Positions 1 through 4,919 of a stretch of DNA of 4,919 bases are shown here, piece by piece; the stretch's first letter is position 1; the number at the start of each line of letters is the position of its first letter. Origin of the DNA: a virus (Duplodnaviria > Heunggongvirae > Uroviricota > Caudoviricetes); IMG/VR virus record IMGVR_UViG_2703718769_000001, positions 1 through 4,919 of that record; one strand, written 5' to 3'. The position numbers and the translations under genes were made by a program. The notes under the pieces were generated by a model, which worked only from the letters and a program-made list of their open reading frames with translations, did not search any database and was not told the origin of the DNA.

Positions 1-301
1 CTCTCCAGGAAACCCGGGGCGGTTCATCATGATTACTTGCAGGTTCGGCACCATGAAGCATGGCAGCACGGCAGGCGTTCCAGCCTTGAACCTTAGCTAT
101 TGCCACAACTGCATCGGTAAAGAACATTCTCGCGGTATCTGGCTCCGGAATTTCATCCGGCACATATGCAGGAGATGGCTTGTCAGCGAGCATTGACATC
201 AACGCGCAGATGGTGTCCTCGCTGATTTCAAACATACCACTGGCGTTCTGCGTCGAGGATTTAAGCTCTTCGATAATGCGCTCTTTCGTAAACTCAGCCA
301 T
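1..301 (-). CDS. Hypothetical protein, 3'-partial (runs off window start); begins MAEFTKERIIEELKSSTQNASGMFEISEDTICALMSMLADKPSPAYVPDE...
   Basis: ATG at 299-301 (minus strand), GGGGAG Shine-Dalgarno about 7 nt upstream overlapping the stop of the upstream gene; open for 100 codons to the window edge with no stop. Not in the ORF track because no stop is in the window. No family recognised. Confidence 0.5.
   Translation of the reverse strand, partial: MAEFTKERIIEELKSSTQNASGMFEISEDTICALMSMLADKPSPAYVPDEIPEPDTARMFFTDAVVAIAKVQGWNACRAAMLHGAEPASNHDEPPRVSWR
2..26. repeat. Left copy of terminal inverted repeat (tctccaggaaacccggggcggttca)
   Basis: Reverse complement of 4895-4919 is tctccaggattcccggggcggttca; 23/25 identical, mismatches at 11-12. 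Extends to about 31 nt with one indel. Contains a CCCGGG site. Confidence 0.8.
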
Positions 302-305
302 ATCC

Positions 306-842
306 CTACTCCCCATTGATGCTGACATTAACGCCAGCTTTGCGAATCTCATCGGCGCATCTGTTGATAATATTTCTGTGAAACTCACAAAAAATTTTCG
401 CCGACTGCGGCCCTAATGGGTGAACATCTTGCGCACGCGGCAGCACAACCTCCCGCGCCTCCAGCTCAGAAATCCGCTTCTCTGCTGCTTCCAGTTCAAC
501 ACGCAGCTTCCCTACCGTAAGAGCAATTTCCTCGTTCTCCTGGTCGCGGCGTTTGATGTATTGCTGTTTTCTTTCCAGCTCATCCAGCAGCGCCAAGACG
601 GTAGCCGGATTGGCTGCGGCGATGAATTCAGCATTGGCCTGCTGTTCCATTTGGAAATCTTCATCGAAACCGCTTTCTGGATGCGCTCCTTCAATTCTGC
701 AAATGGGAAGATATCCAGCAACTTCACGATGAATTAGCGCATCATCACCATCAAATCGGCCCTCTCCATATTCGAGCGACCACTCGCCACACGTTGCTTT
801 CTCTGCCTTTTCACGCAGTGCCTGATAGTCAATCTTGCTCAC
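306..842 (-). CDS. ead/Ea22-like lambdoid early protein with central coiled-coil (178 aa)
   Basis: GTG start at 840-842 preceded by AAGGAGG at 6-nt spacing. Translation MSKIDYQALREKAEKATCGEW...ANPATVLALLDELERKQQ... resembles the ead/Ea22-like family as recalled from memory; not verified by search. Confidence 0.55.
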   Translation of the reverse strand: MSKIDYQALREKAEKATCGEWSLEYGEGRFDGDDALIHREVAGYLPICRIEGAHPESGFDEDFQMEQQANAEFIAAANPATVLALLDELERKQQYIKRRDQENEEIALTVGKLRVELEAAEKRISELEAREVVLPRAQDVHPLGPQSAKIFCEFHRNIINRCADEIRKAGVNVSINGE

Positions 843-1323
843 TGGCCGCCTCCTTCATAAAAATAATCCAGTGGGTCTTGTCACCTTTTCCTGTTCGTTG
901 ACCGATAACAGGCTTTCTGTCGGTCAGTGCCAATATCTGGCGAACAGGTATTTGCGTTTCATTCCATTTAAAAATCAGAACGCCGTATGGCCGCAACACA
1001 CGAAAGGCTTCTTTAAATCCCTGCCGCAAATCATCACGCCAGGTATCTTTATTCAGCCGTCCATATTTCTTTCCCATCCAGGCGTTATCACCAACACGCT
1101 CAAGATGCGGAGGGTCGAATACAACAACCGGAAACGATGCGTCTGCAAATGGTAATGCACGAAAATCTGCTATCAGGTCAGGGCTAATTATCAGCCGTCG
1201 TCCATCACATAATGTGTGCTCTTCCTTTCTGATATCGCTAAATATCGCCCGGTCGTCATTCTTATCGAACCAGAACATGCGACTGCCACAGCACATGTCG
1301 AGGATAGCTGCATGTCCAGTCAC
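829..1323 (-). CDS. Small SAM-dependent methyltransferase, probable phage orphan DNA methyltransferase (164 aa)
   Basis: GTG start at 1321-1323 overlapping the upstream TGA stop (GTGA), AAGGAGG 6 nt upstream. Contains a motif-I-like segment ILDMCCGSRMF and a motif-IV-like VVVFDPPH about 60 residues later, then LIFKW and QRTGKGDKTHW. Precise class (N6-adenine, N4-cytosine, MT-A70-like) cannot be resolved by eye. Confidence 0.6.
   Translation of the reverse strand: MTGHAAILDMCCGSRMFWFDKNDDRAIFSDIRKEEHTLCDGRRLIISPDLIADFRALPFADASFPVVVFDPPHLERVGDNAWMGKKYGRLNKDTWRDDLRQGFKEAFRVLRPYGVLIFKWNETQIPVRQILALTDRKPVIGQRTGKGDKTHWIIFMKEAASEQD
849..855 (-). promoter_or_regulatory. Shine-Dalgarno AAGGAGG for the ead/Ea22-like gene
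   Basis: Minus-strand AAGGAGG lies 6 nt upstream of the GTG start at 842. Confidence 0.6.
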
Positions 1324-1718
1324 TGGTTGCCTCCTTTGCGAAGCTGGGCGGCTAACTCGTCACATATGTGCGTCAAAGAGCAAAGTTTGATTGATGGATG
1401 TTCGCGCATCATCTCTACCCCCTGCGCCCGCACTTCAGCCAGGAAGGCGTCGGTGGCCGGGGTTTTGCAGGACATTTGAATTGCCTTCTCTGTGTATAAA
1501 ACACCCGTTCGATTGGCGGTATACATGATGGTGTTTACAGCATCTTGATGTGCTGATTTCACAGCCTCAACTTCAGCAGCCAGCGCCGCGCACTTGGCCT
1601 CCGCTTCAGCAAATTTACGCACCAGATATTCAGCGTTTGTTTCGTTAACCTTTAAATCACTTGGGATGCATTTACCTTTCAGAAATCCATCCATCTCAAT
1701 TAGTGTCATTTGTTTCAT
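1320..1718 (-). CDS. Hypothetical coiled-coil protein (132 aa from ATG at 1718; track gives a GTG-start version to 1736)
   Basis: ATG at 1716-1718 overlaps the TGA stop of the upstream small ORF (ATGA coupling); GGAG/GGGAAG upstream. Translation [16 protein letters not shown]...[18 protein letters not shown]...; no family recognised. Start choice is uncertain. Confidence 0.5.
1330..1336 (-). promoter_or_regulatory. Shine-Dalgarno AAGGAGG for the methyltransferase gene
   Basis: Minus-strand AAGGAGG lies 6 nt upstream of the GTG start at 1323. Confidence 0.6.
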
Positions 1719-1879
1719 TTCTTCCCACTCCGCCACATCGCATTCAGATACTTGTTTTGATTCACTGATGGAAAAGAATTTCTCTTAAGCAATTCCTCTC
1801 TCGATGGCATTGGCTTTACGCGTTGGCGAATAATCATTTCTGCCGGAAGAATGCCGGGATTGTATGCAAGTCCTCTCAT
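1715..1879 (-). CDS. Small hypothetical protein (54 aa; [54 protein letters not shown])
   Basis: ATG at 1877-1879 with GAGGAA 7 nt upstream; an alternative in-frame ATG at 1896 overlaps the upstream gene's stop. Its stop overlaps the start of the downstream gene (ATGA). Fills an otherwise uncovered gap in a compact operon. Below the track's length cut-off as an ATG ORF. Confidence 0.35.
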
Positions 1880-1889
1880 GGTAAATTCC

Positions 1890-2186
1890 TCAGTCATTAC
1901 TGATAGCGCCATAGCGTGAGCGGTAATTACGCAGGCGCGGGTCGATATATTCAGGGAAGTGGGTATATGTGGCTTTGCGGAATGGTCGGATTGATGTCTG
2001 GTAAATTCGCTCGCGTTCTTCTTTCTCTGCAAGCCATATACAGTGGCGAAATTCCTTTTCCTCTTTCGTTTCCTGCGGTAGAGACATTATTCGATCGTAG
2101 TTTTTTCTGAATTTATCCAGCACCTCCGATACGGAATTGCCGGAACAGCGGCGCGCGTCATCCGCACCATACAGAGGCGCTGGCAT
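1890..2186 (-). CDS. Hypothetical phage protein (98 aa)
   Basis: ATG at 2184-2186 with AGGAG about 7 nt upstream, 13 nt after the HNH stop. Translation [44 protein letters not shown]...; no family recognised. Confidence 0.55.
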
Positions 2187-2199
2187 GATTTTCTCCTGA

Positions 2200-2679
2200 T
2201 TAAATTGCGTGAATAGCGTGACGAGGGAAGGGGAGAGTTACTGGTTCCTCGTCTGGGTAGATAGGTTTGTTATGTTTGTGCCACTCGAAATGACATGACT
2301 TGCAGAGCCACATCACATCGGTTGGTTTGCTGTAGTCGCAGTGGTGCGCCTGTGGTTTACATCCTGATCCGCAGCACTCACATTGTGGTGGTCGGATTAG
2401 CTTACCGTCGCGCAAAAAATTACCCACAATGATGTGGGCTTTTCTTTTCCATGGGTTGCTCTGAATGAACCGCTTTTTGGCTGCGTTACACCGTTCTCTT
2501 CCGCGTTCCGATGATTGATATTCTCTCCTTGCTGATACTCGATGTGGCAATCCAGCGCGTTCTTTGTCGTATTCAGCCAGGCAAGCCCGGCAAGCGGCAG
2601 TTAATCCATCTCTGGATGCTCTTCTGATTTGAAAGTCCCTTTCTTCCTTCTGTTGATGGCATCTTGAGCAGATTTTCAT
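2200..2679 (-). CDS. HNH endonuclease with N-terminal Cys-rich zinc-ribbon region (159 aa)
   Basis: ATG at 2677-2679 with GGAG about 7 nt upstream. C-terminal CECCGSGCKPQAHHCDYSKPTDVMWLCKSCHFEWH fits an HNH/zinc-finger nuclease core; N-terminal CSRCH...CRAC Cys pairs. Confidence 0.65.
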   Translation of the reverse strand: MKICSRCHQQKEERDFQIRRASRDGLTAACRACLAEYDKERAGLPHRVSARREYQSSERGRERCNAAKKRFIQSNPWKRKAHIIVGNFLRDGKLIRPPQCECCGSGCKPQAHHCDYSKPTDVMWLCKSCHFEWHKHNKPIYPDEEPVTLPFPRHAIHAI

Positions 2680-2688
2680 ATTCAGCTC

Positions 2689-3162
2689 CTAGAACGGAAT
2701 ATCCGAATCGTCGAAGTTCATAGGTGGTTCGCTGTGATTCCCATGCTGCTGAGATTGCTGTCTTTGTTGCTGGCCGTTATTTCGCTGAGGTGAAGACTGT
2801 TCATTGCTTCCTTGCTTGCCACCAAGCATTTGCATGGTTCCACCAACGCCCACGATAACTTCGGTAGTGAACCGATCCTGTCCGCTTTGATCCTGCCATT
2901 TTCTTGTCCGCAATTTTCCTTCAAGATAAACCTCAGAGCCTTTTCGCAGATATTCGCTGGCAATTTCTGCCAGTTTCCCGCTCATTACCACACGGTGCCA
3001 CTCCGTCTGCTCCTTTTGCTCTCCAGTTTGCTTATCACGCCATTGTTCTGACGTAGCAACTGTAAGGTTTGCAAATGCCGTTCCTGATGGTGAATATCTG
3101 ATTTCTGGATCATGCCCAAGGCGACCAATAATGATCACCTTATTTACGCCTCTGCTTGCCAT
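2689..3162 (-). CDS. ssb: Single-stranded DNA-binding protein, phage-encoded (157 aa)
   Basis: Translation [23 protein letters not shown]...[52 protein letters not shown]...DDSDIPF shows an SSB OB-fold core, Gly/Gln-rich linker and acidic C-terminal tail ending DIPF. ATG immediately follows the TAA of the upstream gene. Confidence 0.9.
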
Positions 3163-3870
3163 TTATGCCGCCTGTTTTAGCTCGTTAACTCTGATGTTCA
3201 TTACCTGAACGCATTTAGCCTGCGCCTCCTCGTTTCCAGCCATTAATTGCCAGTCACGCTGATAACGCTCGATGAGTTTTTTCTTGTCAGTTTCTGTTGA
3301 CGCATAATCGCTGAAGTCTTTCAGGATTTGTTCGCAGTCAACCGATGGAGATTTCTGGTTGGTATTTTCTGGTGATGGTTTGTTATCTGATGCTGGGATT
3401 GCCCATCCCGGCAGCGATGGAGGGAGCCAGTAAAATCCTGTTCCATCCTTCAGTTTTGCCCTGTGCCACCCCTGCTTTTTATCGAGAGATGTTTGTGCGA
3501 AACCTTCCTCAAGGTTATACAGATACCGACCGATTCCCCACTGAACGGCAGCGCGCTTCATTGCACCGGAACGACCACCTTTGACGGCTTCTACCTGCGT
3601 GTTTTCAGCAGCATCCCATTTGGTTACCCATTCGGAATCAATCTTTATTGATATGCCGCATTCAACGCCGCCGTTGTTGGGAATATCGCGGTATTCATTG
3701 CGCCATCCTGCTTTGCCGCAAACATCGTCCAGGCGTTTCATGATTGCCCGGTTCGTGACATAAGCCAGCACCATAGCCCACACCTTGCCATCGCGTGTTT
3801 TACCGCTTTGCTGTATTCGCCATTCGATATCTTCAGGGCTGAATGGCTCATCGAATTTGTTCAAATCCAT
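3163..3870 (-). CDS. Rad52/Sak-type single-strand annealing protein, phage recombinase (235 aa)
   Basis: ATG at 3868-3870 with GAGGTG upstream. N-terminal FDEPFSPEDIEWRIQQ...AMVLAYVTNRAIMKRLDDVCGKAGWRNEY matches the pattern recalled for phage Rad52-family annealing proteins; sits directly upstream of ssb. Family assignment is from memory. Confidence 0.65.
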   Translation of the reverse strand: MDLNKFDEPFSPEDIEWRIQQSGKTRDGKVWAMVLAYVTNRAIMKRLDDVCGKAGWRNEYRDIPNNGGVECGISIKIDSEWVTKWDAAENTQVEAVKGGRSGAMKRAAVQWGIGRYLYNLEEGFAQTSLDKKQGWHRAKLKDGTGFYWLPPSLPGWAIPASDNKPSPENTNQKSPSVDCEQILKDFSDYASTETDKKKLIERYQRDWQLMAGNEEAQAKCVQVMNIRVNELKQAA

Positions 3871-3878
3871 AATTCACC

Positions 3879-4049
3879 TCAGAATGGACACGGCCCAAGG
3901 AAATAACGCTGATTTAATACTTCGACTCGGGACAAATTAAGGCATACCCGCATTCCTTCGCGGTCACCATTATGGCGATACCAGAGAGCTTTCTGAGTGT
4001 ACATGCGCCTCTGTAACTTGCTCTCCTTCACTGTGGTTGCAAGTGACAT
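3879..4049 (-). CDS. Small basic hypothetical protein (56 aa; MSLATTVKESKLQRRMYTQKALWYRHNGDREGMRVCLNLSRVEVLNQRYFLGPCPF) at the position of gam/arf in lambda/P22
   Basis: ATG at 4047-4049 with AAGGAG at 6-nt spacing (4056-4061); its TGA stop overlaps the Shine-Dalgarno of the annealing-protein gene. A competing 52-aa ORF (3970..4128) starts on an ATGA overlap with kil, so the true frame is unresolved. Confidence 0.35.
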   Translation of the reverse strand: MSLATTVKESKLQRRMYTQKALWYRHNGDREGMRVCLNLSRVEVLNQRYFLGPCPF

Positions 4050-4124
4050 GAATATCTCCTTCGTTACCGATTAATTCTTTCATCTGACGAATGAATTCTT
4101 CGTCTGACCAGTTATCTGTAAAAC

Positions 4125-4277
4125 TCATTTCCTGCGATACCACGGAAGGTTGATAGCTGATTTCATCGCTTTATTTGCTTCAAGCCACATTTTGGAATCA
4201 CCAATAAATCTGGCTATTACTGCTTTGTTCTGTGCAGCGCGAAGCATCTGGTGATTGATGTCTATTTCATTGCGCAT
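4125..4277 (-). CDS. kil: Kil-like host cell-division inhibitor peptide (50 aa)
   Basis: ATG at 4275-4277, overlapping the 3' end of the cIII homolog by 16 nt. Translation MRNEIDINHQMLRAAQNKAVIARFIGDSKMWLEANKAMKSAINLPWYRRK; the IA.FIGD.KM..EA core resembles lambda Kil as recalled, and the position right after cIII matches lambda. Confidence 0.55.
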   Translation of the reverse strand: MRNEIDINHQMLRAAQNKAVIARFIGDSKMWLEANKAMKSAINLPWYRRK

Positions 4278-4393
4278 AATAAGACCTCAACTCTTTTCCA
4301 TCCGTCACGTAATTTACGGGTGATTCGTTCAAGTAAAGATTCATTTAGTTGGAAGGCACCCATGCGAGCGCCTCCCGCGATTGCGTAAATCAT
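4262..4393 (-). CDS. cIII: cIII homolog, FtsH/HflB protease inhibitor (43 aa)
   Basis: ATG at 4391-4393 with AAGGAA 7 nt upstream. Translation MIYAIAGGARMGAFQLNESLLERITRKLRDGWKRVEVLLCAMK contains the ESLLERITRKLRDGWKR helix recalled from lambda cIII. Below the track's 60-aa cut-off. Confidence 0.8.
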   Translation of the reverse strand: MIYAIAGGARMGAFQLNESLLERITRKLRDGWKRVEVLLCAMK

Positions 4394-4417
4394 GGGTGGT
4401 TCCTTATATTGGTTTTA

Positions 4418-4919
4418 TTAGTAGGTTATTTTTGTTGCGAATACTTCGCCTTTTACGATGGCTGTTATGATATTTTTAGCAACATCTTCTGATGCACCAA
4501 CCTTGATAAGGTCAGCAAGTATTTTGTTATTTACTTCTTTCCGGTGAGCTTTATCCTTTGCTCTACGCTCTTCTTCGTCCTTGATTCTTTTTTCTTCTGC
4601 TATTCTGGCTTGCTCTTTTGCTTCAGCCTCGCGCCGGATTCGTTCAGCCTCCTCCTGTGCTTTTCGGCGTTCTGCTTCAATTGCCGCATGCTTTTCTCTT
4701 TCAGCTCGTTCTGCTGCCTCTTTTGCTTCGCGCTGTGCTCGTTGCTCGGCTTCAATGCGTTCACGCTCTGCACGTTCCGCTGCGGCCTTAGCTTCTGCTT
4801 CTCGCCTTGCTGCTGCTTCAATTTCGGCTTTTGCCTTTGCTTCGGCTTCTGCTCTGGCTTTCTCTTCAGCTTCTCTTTTTAAGCGTTCTTCATGTGAACC
4901 GCCCCGGGAATCCTGGAGA
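4418..4919 (-). CDS. Charged low-complexity coiled-coil protein, 5'-partial (start beyond window end); superficially TolA domain II-like
   Basis: Minus-strand frame is open from the window edge for 166 codons to tandem TAA TAA at 4415-4420. Translation ...EAEEKARAEAEAKAKAEIEAAARREAEAKAAAERAERERIEAEQRAQREAKEAAERAEREKHAAIEAERRKAQEEAERIRREAEAKEQARIAEEKRIKDEEERRAKDKAHRKEVNNKILADLIKVGASEDVAKNIITAIVKGEVFATKITY. Not in the ORF track because no start is in the window. Confidence 0.55.
   Translation of the reverse strand, partial: LQDSRGGSHEERLKREAEEKARAEAEAKAKAEIEAAARREAEAKAAAERAERERIEAEQRAQREAKEAAERAEREKHAAIEAERRKAQEEAERIRREAEAKEQARIAEEKRIKDEEERRAKDKAHRKEVNNKILADLIKVGASEDVAKNIITAIVKGEVFATKITY
4540..4890. 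repeat. Low-complexity pyrimidine-rich (plus strand) cryptic simple-sequence tract, GCTTC/GCTGC-type units, encoding the E/A/R/K repeat region
   Basis: Visible reiteration of gcttc, gctgc, ttctgc and cttttgc motifs; all three frames on both strands are low-complexity, which explains the spurious track ORFs 4544..4882(+) and 4600..4821(-). Confidence 0.6.
4895..4919. repeat. Right copy of terminal inverted repeat (tgaaccgccccgggaatcctggaga)
   Basis: Inverted partner of 2-26 (23/25). Lies inside the 5'-partial coiled-coil ORF. Confidence 0.8.

Follow-up and report, generated by a model that had tools for sequence, protein, structure and literature searches.

Why should a 4.9-kb stretch of viral DNA begin and end in near-perfect inverted copies of one short sequence? 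We address this question for the window, by which we mean the whole 4,919-nucleotide stretch analysed. A repeat search of the window recovered two arms of 25 nt, at 2-26 and 4895-4919, that are 92% complementary (23/25) and separated by 4,868 nt. With up to three mismatches allowed, the 25-mer has exactly two sites in the window, the arms themselves, and none was expected by chance (mean 0.00 sites, maximum 0, in 200 dinucleotide-preserving shuffles). A preliminary description had reported these 23/25 copies and a CCCGGG in each of them, and had judged the match to lie beyond chance; all three points are borne out. Its further extension to about 31 nt with one indel exists, but the additional bases are phage flank and not repeat; the motif TCATG adjoins both arms, at 27-31 and 4890-4894.

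The window is the reverse complement of a complete contig (LNZJ01000179.1, 4,919 bp; L013 in our list) of draft assembly GCA_001607385.1. We conclude, with a probability of roughly 0.93, that the whole contig is a piece of a defective Sf6/P22-like prophage whose assembly broke at two flanking copies of IS629.

Identity of the repeat arms

Both arms match the ends of IS629 perfectly. Window positions 1-26 agree at 26 of 26 bases with the 3' end of 1310-bp IS copies (L001, 4290-4315; L002, 3792-3817; also L014), and 4895-4919 agree at 25 of 25 with the left inverted repeat, IRL (L001, 3006-3030; L002, 2507-2531; L014, 301-325). Annotation of the L014 copy reads 'insertion sequence: IS3 family IS629'. 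End to end, the L001 element shares 99.5% identity with one that bears this IS3 family IS629 annotation together with IS629 OrfA/OrfB, and RefSeq places in L001 an IS3-family transposase with a programmed frameshift. The arm tips read 5'-TG…CA-3', as in the IS3 family, and one arm corresponds to IRL, the other to the right inverted repeat (IRR).

The two mismatches between the arms (AA/TT) reflect how the ends of IS629 normally differ, with AAT in IRL versus TTT in IRR in every reference copy (L001, L002, L014). To our knowledge, every IS has imperfect terminal inverted repeats. Because the ends are imperfectly inverted, a contig that starts in the tail of one copy and runs into the head of the next would seem to be bracketed by a 23/25 inverted repeat.

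IS629 is represented in the contig by only 25-26 nt per side; the body of the element (1310 bp; orfA/orfB, with a programmed -1 frameshift, and a transposase of the DDE (rve) type) was seen in the reference copies only, where the target-site duplications are ATG (L001) and CTGG (L014). The element is multicopy and found at unrelated sites. Of 5,426 complete E. coli genomes, 4,157 contain the 30-mer at 4890-4919, with 39,247 places in all and a median of 5 in each genome, and IS629 is found in 176 phage records. Both tips have the same (+) orientation, that is, they are direct, and they run antisense to the phage genes. Judged by this identity, the arms are the tips of two IS629 copies, an ordinary and already known pattern rather than a new phage feature. 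The earlier suggestion of the ends of an element bounded by inverted repeats was thus right in kind and reversed in geometry, as the tips face inward from two flanking copies.

The interrupted prophage operon

The 4,868-bp core between the arms (27-4894) comes from an Sf6/P22-like prophage and covers part of its early-left operon, including cIII, kil, erf, ssb, abc2 and ead. The features of the window are as follows.

1-26, + strand: IS629 right end, last 26 nt, of which 2-26 form the 25-nt IRR; the IS body would lie upstream, outside the contig
27-301, - strand: DUF551-like gene, first 92 codons (275 nt) of 233 aa, cut by the left IS
306-842, - strand: Ead/Ea22-like gene (Pfam PF13935, E=1.5e-34)
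829-1323, - strand: small putative SAM-dependent methyltransferase (weak Pfam Methyltransf_11 match, 22.2 bits against a cut-off of 21.2)
1320-1736, - strand: hypothetical phage gene (ORF of 138 aa, called as 132 aa in related contigs (L013); no Pfam match)
1715-1879, - strand: DUF2737 small protein (PF10930 on the L013 gene call at 3041-3205, coordinates converted)
1890-2186, - strand: abc2, anti-RecBCD protein 2 (Pfam PF11043, E=4e-61)
2200-2679, - strand: 159-aa Cys-rich protein, homologue of Sf6 gene 26 (ORF and Sf6 annotation; no Pfam match)
2689-3162, - strand: phage single-stranded DNA-binding protein (Pfam PF00436, E=1.7e-38)
3163-3870, - strand: Erf-like single-strand annealing protein, Rad52/Rad22 family (Pfam PF04098, E=5e-26; Sf6 gene 28)
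4125-4277, - strand: kil (Pfam PF06301, E=1.8e-20)
4262-4393, - strand: cIII (PF02061 on the L013 gene call at 527-658; Sf6 gene 32)
4418-4894, - strand: Sf6 gene 33-like Ala/Glu/Lys-rich coiled-coil gene, last 158 codons and stop (translation)
4895-4919, + strand: IS629 left end, first 25 nt (IRL); the IS body would lie downstream, outside the contig

Phage homology is limited to 27-4894, and so ends exactly at the inner edges of the arms. Across 3,344 E. coli and 531 phage records, no alignment passed 4894 or extended left of 24-36; the leftmost reach of any phage or E. coli prophage homologue was 24-27. At the left edge, the DUF551-like gene is present as an uninterrupted 233-aa gene in L003-L011, with DNA 100% identical up to the junction. 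Matches to window 24-70 are annotated DUF551 in RefSeq; the 91-aa fragment itself has no Pfam match. At the right edge, the 5' half of the coiled-coil gene has been removed by the IS, whereas Sf6 gene 33 is uninterrupted (969 nt) and reads ...TTCATGCTCTCGC... beyond the junction position. RefSeq homologues of this gene are named 'TolA' or 'coiled-coil domain-containing', and those of the gene at 829-1323 'class I SAM-dependent methyltransferase'. Separately, some E. coli records name homologues of the Cys-rich protein at 2200-2679 HNH endonuclease, and a protein identical to the Ead product bears the name E. coli in NCBI and UniRef.

The preliminary description had placed both arms within coding sequence running past the window and had taken this as an argument against classical transposon ends. 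The frames are open through the arms, yet only formally: by comparison with uninterrupted relatives, phage coding sequence ends exactly at 26/27 and 4894/4895. The argument therefore falls, since two phage genes are interrupted here by IS ends of the classical kind. One product of the formal reading frame on the left is a predicted fusion protein, in which the DUF551-like N-terminus continues into an IS-encoded tail, EPPRVSWRVFYL.

The comparison with relatives also bears on the proposal that an invertible or exchanged phage module recombines at these repeats. A long inverted repeat does flank a set of phage genes here, as such a module would have. However, Sf6 reads through both sites, and L003 and L005-L008, each of which matches the window core at 100% identity along the stretch it spans, read through the left one; in none of them is the 25-mer found within four mismatches. 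Sf6 is collinear with the window at both sites and the identical-core contigs at the left, so that relatives offer a single collinear orientation and no conserved repeats. Pfam searches revealed no invertase or recombinase gene in the block. The arms instead belong to a 1310-bp transposable element present at tens of thousands of unrelated places, and the parent IS copies, being direct repeats, would give deletion and not inversion. We regard an inversion or module-swap boundary as vanishingly improbable. Absence of the 25-mer from the junctions of related phages had been named in the preliminary description as refuting, and on that criterion the pattern reduces to repeats defined by sampling.

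Origin of the contig and competing structures

The contig may be understood as follows. One IS629 copy would have inserted in the DUF551-like gene, its IRR end now forming window 1-26, and a second in the gp33-like coiled-coil gene, its IRL forming 4895-4919. A short-read draft of an E. coli-type genome would then yield 4,868 bp of prophage with the first few repeat bases on each side; assembly would have halted inside a multicopy IS and so left the repeats at the edges of the window. Multicopy IS elements are known to complicate assembly, with contigs ending beside them (PMC4558774). We infer that both copies are full length, and that each probably came in through a separate, ordinary copy-out/paste-in event that duplicated 3-4 bp of target. 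If so, the far flanks should be found on two further contigs, one running …GGCAACTCTTCA(T) and then into IS629 IRL, the other beginning with IS629 IRR followed by (C)ATGCTCTCGCTTTTCC….

When the two 70-nt window ends were compared by megablast with 5,426 complete E. coli genomes, neither junction was covered by any record. Exact searches gave no matches for the right junction in genome, viral and metagenome contig collections, and none for the left junction in viral contigs. At the right junction the phage sequence reads …TTCATG immediately before the IS, 4 nt from the IS629 junction of L004 (…TTCATGCTCT, then IS). L004 (GCA_021080565.1) is an otherwise identical prophage. To account for this offset, one must assume that IS629 inserted independently at a hot spot or that a short stretch next to the IS, CTCT, was deleted.

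These features could be read as errors of assembly, whether a chimeric join, an artefact of the hairpin or inverted-duplication type, or incorrect end bases; this is a draft contig with repeats precisely at its ends, and its right junction is offset by 4 nt relative to L004. Against this, the arms are not copies of one another, but two distinct natural ends of IS629, IRL and IRR, each of them perfect. A hairpin artefact would yield identical arms and a duplicated interior, none of which was found in the window, and the core is 100% identical to independent assemblies. Such an error is therefore highly improbable. The earlier term 'assembly artefact' applies in a limited sense, that of a whole draft contig ending in a collapsed multicopy IS, and not in that of a chimeric join or inverted duplication. 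We also considered a de Bruijn mis-join through the 31-mer TTCATG plus IRL, which is shared with L001, and rejected it because k-mers spanning the junction must occur in the reads. A linear genome with inverted terminal repeats was likewise set aside: the 4.9-kb piece is internal to an Sf6-like genome of about 39 kb and is no self-contained replicon, and the genes at its two borders are truncated.

A further rival is a mobile unit. It could be a composite transposon (IS629-segment-IS629); alternatively, a single IS629 could link the two ends of the segment, right to left, in a translocatable unit, circular or tandem, that would take erf-ssb-abc2 along. The tips have the direct orientation that both structures need. 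Furthermore, TCATG stands at both ends of the phage core and is readable as a 5-bp duplication around a single IS, and both junctions were found only in this assembly among all the data searched. Yet the reported target duplications of IS629 are 3-4 bp, not 5 (PMC3271280). Neither the junctions nor the unit in another context occurred in the 5,426 complete E. coli genomes, phage records and contig collections searched, so that the same IS-segment-IS arrangement was not seen in different contexts there. In other strains the same prophage has IS629-family insertions elsewhere: the L004 draft contig ends in IS629, and L009 and L010 have an IS629 isoform within abc2. This fits repeated simple insertions. 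A short-read contig looks the same under a mobile unit and under simple insertions, and thus provides no positive evidence for the former.

If the two insertions were independent, the TCATG at both core ends could only be coincidence or a weak target preference; because exact TCATG plus IRL was found in only 1 of 6,686 E. coli records, any such preference is weak. We consider a mobile unit very unlikely, and slightly more so the specific proposal that direct IS629 tips and the TCATG repeat mark the erf-ssb-abc2 module as an IS629-borne translocatable unit (circle, tandem or compound transposon). Were it true, such a unit could carry a phage recombination and anti-RecBCD cassette between replicons.

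Implications and comparison with known systems

Under the preferred reading of a contig broken at two IS629 copies, these insertions interrupt the early-left operon in an Sf6-like prophage, in keeping with the known build-up of IS629 in E. coli prophages and its contribution to their decay. Two direct copies would also set the stage for loss of erf-ssb-abc2 through homologous recombination. A more general caution concerns short contigs from IS-rich genomes, where terminal inverted repeats are the expected sign of a break in two copies of one IS. Such repeats should not be taken as element ends, as inversion sites or as a 'complete genome with ITRs'.

Looking across known systems, the gene order gp33-like, cIII, kil, erf, ssb, gp26-like, abc2 … ead is that of the pL recombination region in Sf6 and P22-like Lederbergvirus prophages. 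Shigella phage Sf6 is 98.5% identical across 72% of the window's length; the contig differs from it in a mosaic ead-proximal part and in the two genes disrupted by IS629. A composite transposon likewise has a segment between direct IS tips, but here there is no sign of unit movement and the cargo is an ordinary prophage segment in place.

IS629 belongs to the IS3 family, has the isoforms IS1203 and IS3411, and is annotated both in Stx phages and in E. coli chromosomes. Its terminal 25/26 nt are the same as the arms, with no difference in the visible part, the tips being all that the window contains. By comparison, the related contigs L009 and L010 carry a 97% isoform with a one-base IRL variant. 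As here, IS629 is multicopy in E. coli and typically inserts in prophage genes; in O157:H7, 62% of its copies lie in prophages, with target duplications of 3-4 bp (PMC3271280). Finally, the contig resembles other breaks caused by IS collapse, the problem that ISMapper addresses, in that each of its ends lies just a few bases into the repeat, and sister assemblies of this prophage are likewise broken at IS copies. They differ in how much of the IS is retained, 25-26 nt here versus 127 nt in L004, the shorter remnant presumably reflecting a different assembler or k-mer size.

IS629 ends at the window termini

The window is bounded by two inverted repeats:
2-26, arm 1, TCTCCAGGAAACCCGGGGCGGTTCA
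4895-4919, arm 2, TGAACCGCCCCGGGAATCCTGGAGA

A repeat search of the window found the arms to be complementary at 23 of 25 positions, with a separation of 4868 nt. At three or fewer mismatches the 25-mer matches only these two sites in the window, and it occurs in none of 200 dinucleotide-preserving shuffles. The inverted repeat is thus real and no chance match, as the preliminary description held; the longer match that it reported, of about 31 nt with one indel, is explained by TCATG, with which the intervening core both starts (27-31) and ends (4890-4894).

Of the 5,426 complete E. coli genomes, 4,157 contain the 30-mer at 4890-4919, at 39,247 places in all; the median is 5 copies per genome and the maximum at least 59. 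At the reference locus L001, a 1310-bp element begins with the 25-mer, and its final 26 nt (CTCTCCAGGAAACCCGGGGCGGTTCA) are the same as window 1-26. This element contains a RefSeq-annotated IS3-family transposase with a programmed frameshift, and is flanked by a 3-bp ATG duplication. Over its full length it is 99.4-99.5% identical to deposited features named 'insertion sequence: IS3 family IS629', which have IS629 OrfA/OrfB and a 4-bp target duplication. Given the match of the arms to the IS629 ends, window 1-26 is the 3' tip (right inverted repeat, IRR) and 4895-4919 the 5' tip (left inverted repeat, IRL) of +-oriented IS629. IRL (…GGGAATCC…) and IRR (…GGGTTTCC…) show the same two-base difference in all three full-length reference copies (L001, L002 and L014), which accounts for the 23/25 in the window. 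In other words, two IS629 tips in direct orientation adjoin a resident prophage segment.

The prophage segment and its interrupted genes

Whole-window megablast matched 3,344 records from the 5,426 complete E. coli genomes and 531 of 50,697 phage records, and placed the matched region in the early region of Sf6/P22-like prophages (98.5% identity to Shigella phage Sf6, 98.0% to IME10). No whole-window alignment to these sets extended past 4894 or started before approximately 36. When the 70-nt ends were searched alone, 655 records matched 4850-4894 on the right, none going beyond, and matches on the left started at 24-27. Phage homology therefore stops where each arm meets the core and, judged from these alignments, the arms are non-phage DNA.

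The genes between the arms, all on the minus strand, are arranged as in the Sf6 early-left operon.

Genes of the core (27-4894)
4418-4894, -, Sf6 gp33-like coiled-coil gene, C-terminal 158 codons
-, cIII
-, kil
-, two small ORFs
-, Erf-like annealing protein, Rad52/Rad22 family
-, SSB
2200-2679, -, gp26-like protein, 159 aa
-, Abc2, anti-RecBCD
-, DUF2737
-, hypothetical gene
-, small methyltransferase-like gene
-, Ead/Ea22
27-301, -, DUF551-like gene, first 92 codons of 233 aa

The core is 100% identical to three draft contigs of the same prophage (L003, L004 and L005). The DUF551-like gene is unbroken in the related contigs L003-L011 (…GGCAACTCT^TCATGATTAC…) and the gp33 gene runs across the site in Sf6 (…TTCTTCATG^CTCTCGC…), so both genes are cut exactly at the arms. 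The arms had been described as lying inside ORFs that continue beyond the window. The frames do remain open through the arms, because the 25 nt happen to be stop-free, but the phage genes themselves end there; in the DUF551-like frame, a stop is predicted 12 codons into the IS (worked out by hand from the L001 IS sequence).

Degenerate direct repeats at 4588-4873 (family D1, 64-73% identity) within the coiled-coil gene are a product of Ala/Glu/Lys/Arg-rich low-complexity coding sequence and not a separate repeat element. The 159-aa Sf6 gp26 homologue is Cys-rich and has no match in Pfam. Gene calling includes it in L004 and omits it in L003, L005 and the source contig despite identical DNA; some RefSeq records label its homologues HNH endonuclease.

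Contig breakpoints and other readings of the window ends

The window is identical to the reverse complement of the complete draft contig LNZJ01000179.1 (GCA_001607385.1; 4919 nt, as in the source contig L013). This contig is also the one record matching the truncated protein whose ORF leaves the right end. Since the window is a whole draft contig, its ends are assembly breakpoints within a multicopy repeat. Sister assemblies break likewise: L004 (GCA_021080565.1) terminates 127 nt into IS629, abc2 in L009 and L010 holds a 97%-identical IS629 isoform in which both contigs end, and L011 begins at that isoform site.

The inversion or module-swap boundary proposed in the preliminary description is excluded, as relatives are collinear and without the 25-mer at the arm sites, and the block has no recombinase. 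An inverted-duplication (hairpin) or chimeric assembly artefact is unlikely, given that the arms are two different natural IS ends and that the core matches independent assemblies exactly. A compound transposon or single-IS circle would be compatible with a short-read contig but is improbable and without positive support. Neither junction was found elsewhere among complete E. coli genomes or viral contigs, and the right one was also absent from genome and metagenome contigs. The window-end feature is real sequence of ordinary origin, namely IS629 termini at draft-contig breakpoints.

Target sites and IS629 in related prophages

In L004, IRL interrupts the gp33-like gene (…TTCATGCTCT^TGAACC; L004 103-140) 4 nt deeper than in the window (…TTCATG^TGAACC; 4890-4894), the two prophages being otherwise identical (core 100%). 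Either an independent hot-spot insertion or a 4-nt deletion beside the IS would explain this offset. Both uninterrupted target sites share TCTTCATG, the unrelated L001 copy is also preceded by TTCATG, and TTCA^TG resembles abutted IS629 ends (…GGTTCA^TGAACC…). A local hot spot, or a weak target preference for mimics of abutted IS ends, may lie behind both the offset and the TCATG flanks. Exact TCATG plus IRL occurs in only 1 of 6,686 E. coli records.

The abc2 isoform (97%; IRL TGAACCGCCCCGGAAATCC…) occupies L009 1-544 and L010 1-185, and L011 starts at its insertion site (window-equivalent 2137/2138); contigs break there too. In L003, the xis-like HTH_17 gene of this prophage is closely followed by an IS21-family element (7308-8803; IstB and rve transposase) at the expected integrase position, suggesting that the prophage of this strain is defective. 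At least 24 draft contigs in NCBI, each of 8.8 kb or less, contain this exact prophage segment, whereas its coverage stays below 80% in every complete RefSeq E. coli genome. Thus, the lineage appears to be IS-rich and unrepresented among closed genomes.

Two full IS629 copies are probably present, each of which would have inserted via copy-out/paste-in, the ordinary route for the IS3 family. Both disrupted genes would then be inactivated and 1.3 kb of antisense IS would be placed between pL and the recombination genes; the direct copies could also delete the erf-ssb-abc2 block via homologous recombination. Multicopy IS elements are well documented to hamper assembly, with contigs ending beside them (PMC4558774). 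In O157:H7, 62% of IS629 lies within prophages, and its target duplications are 3-4 bp (PMC3271280).
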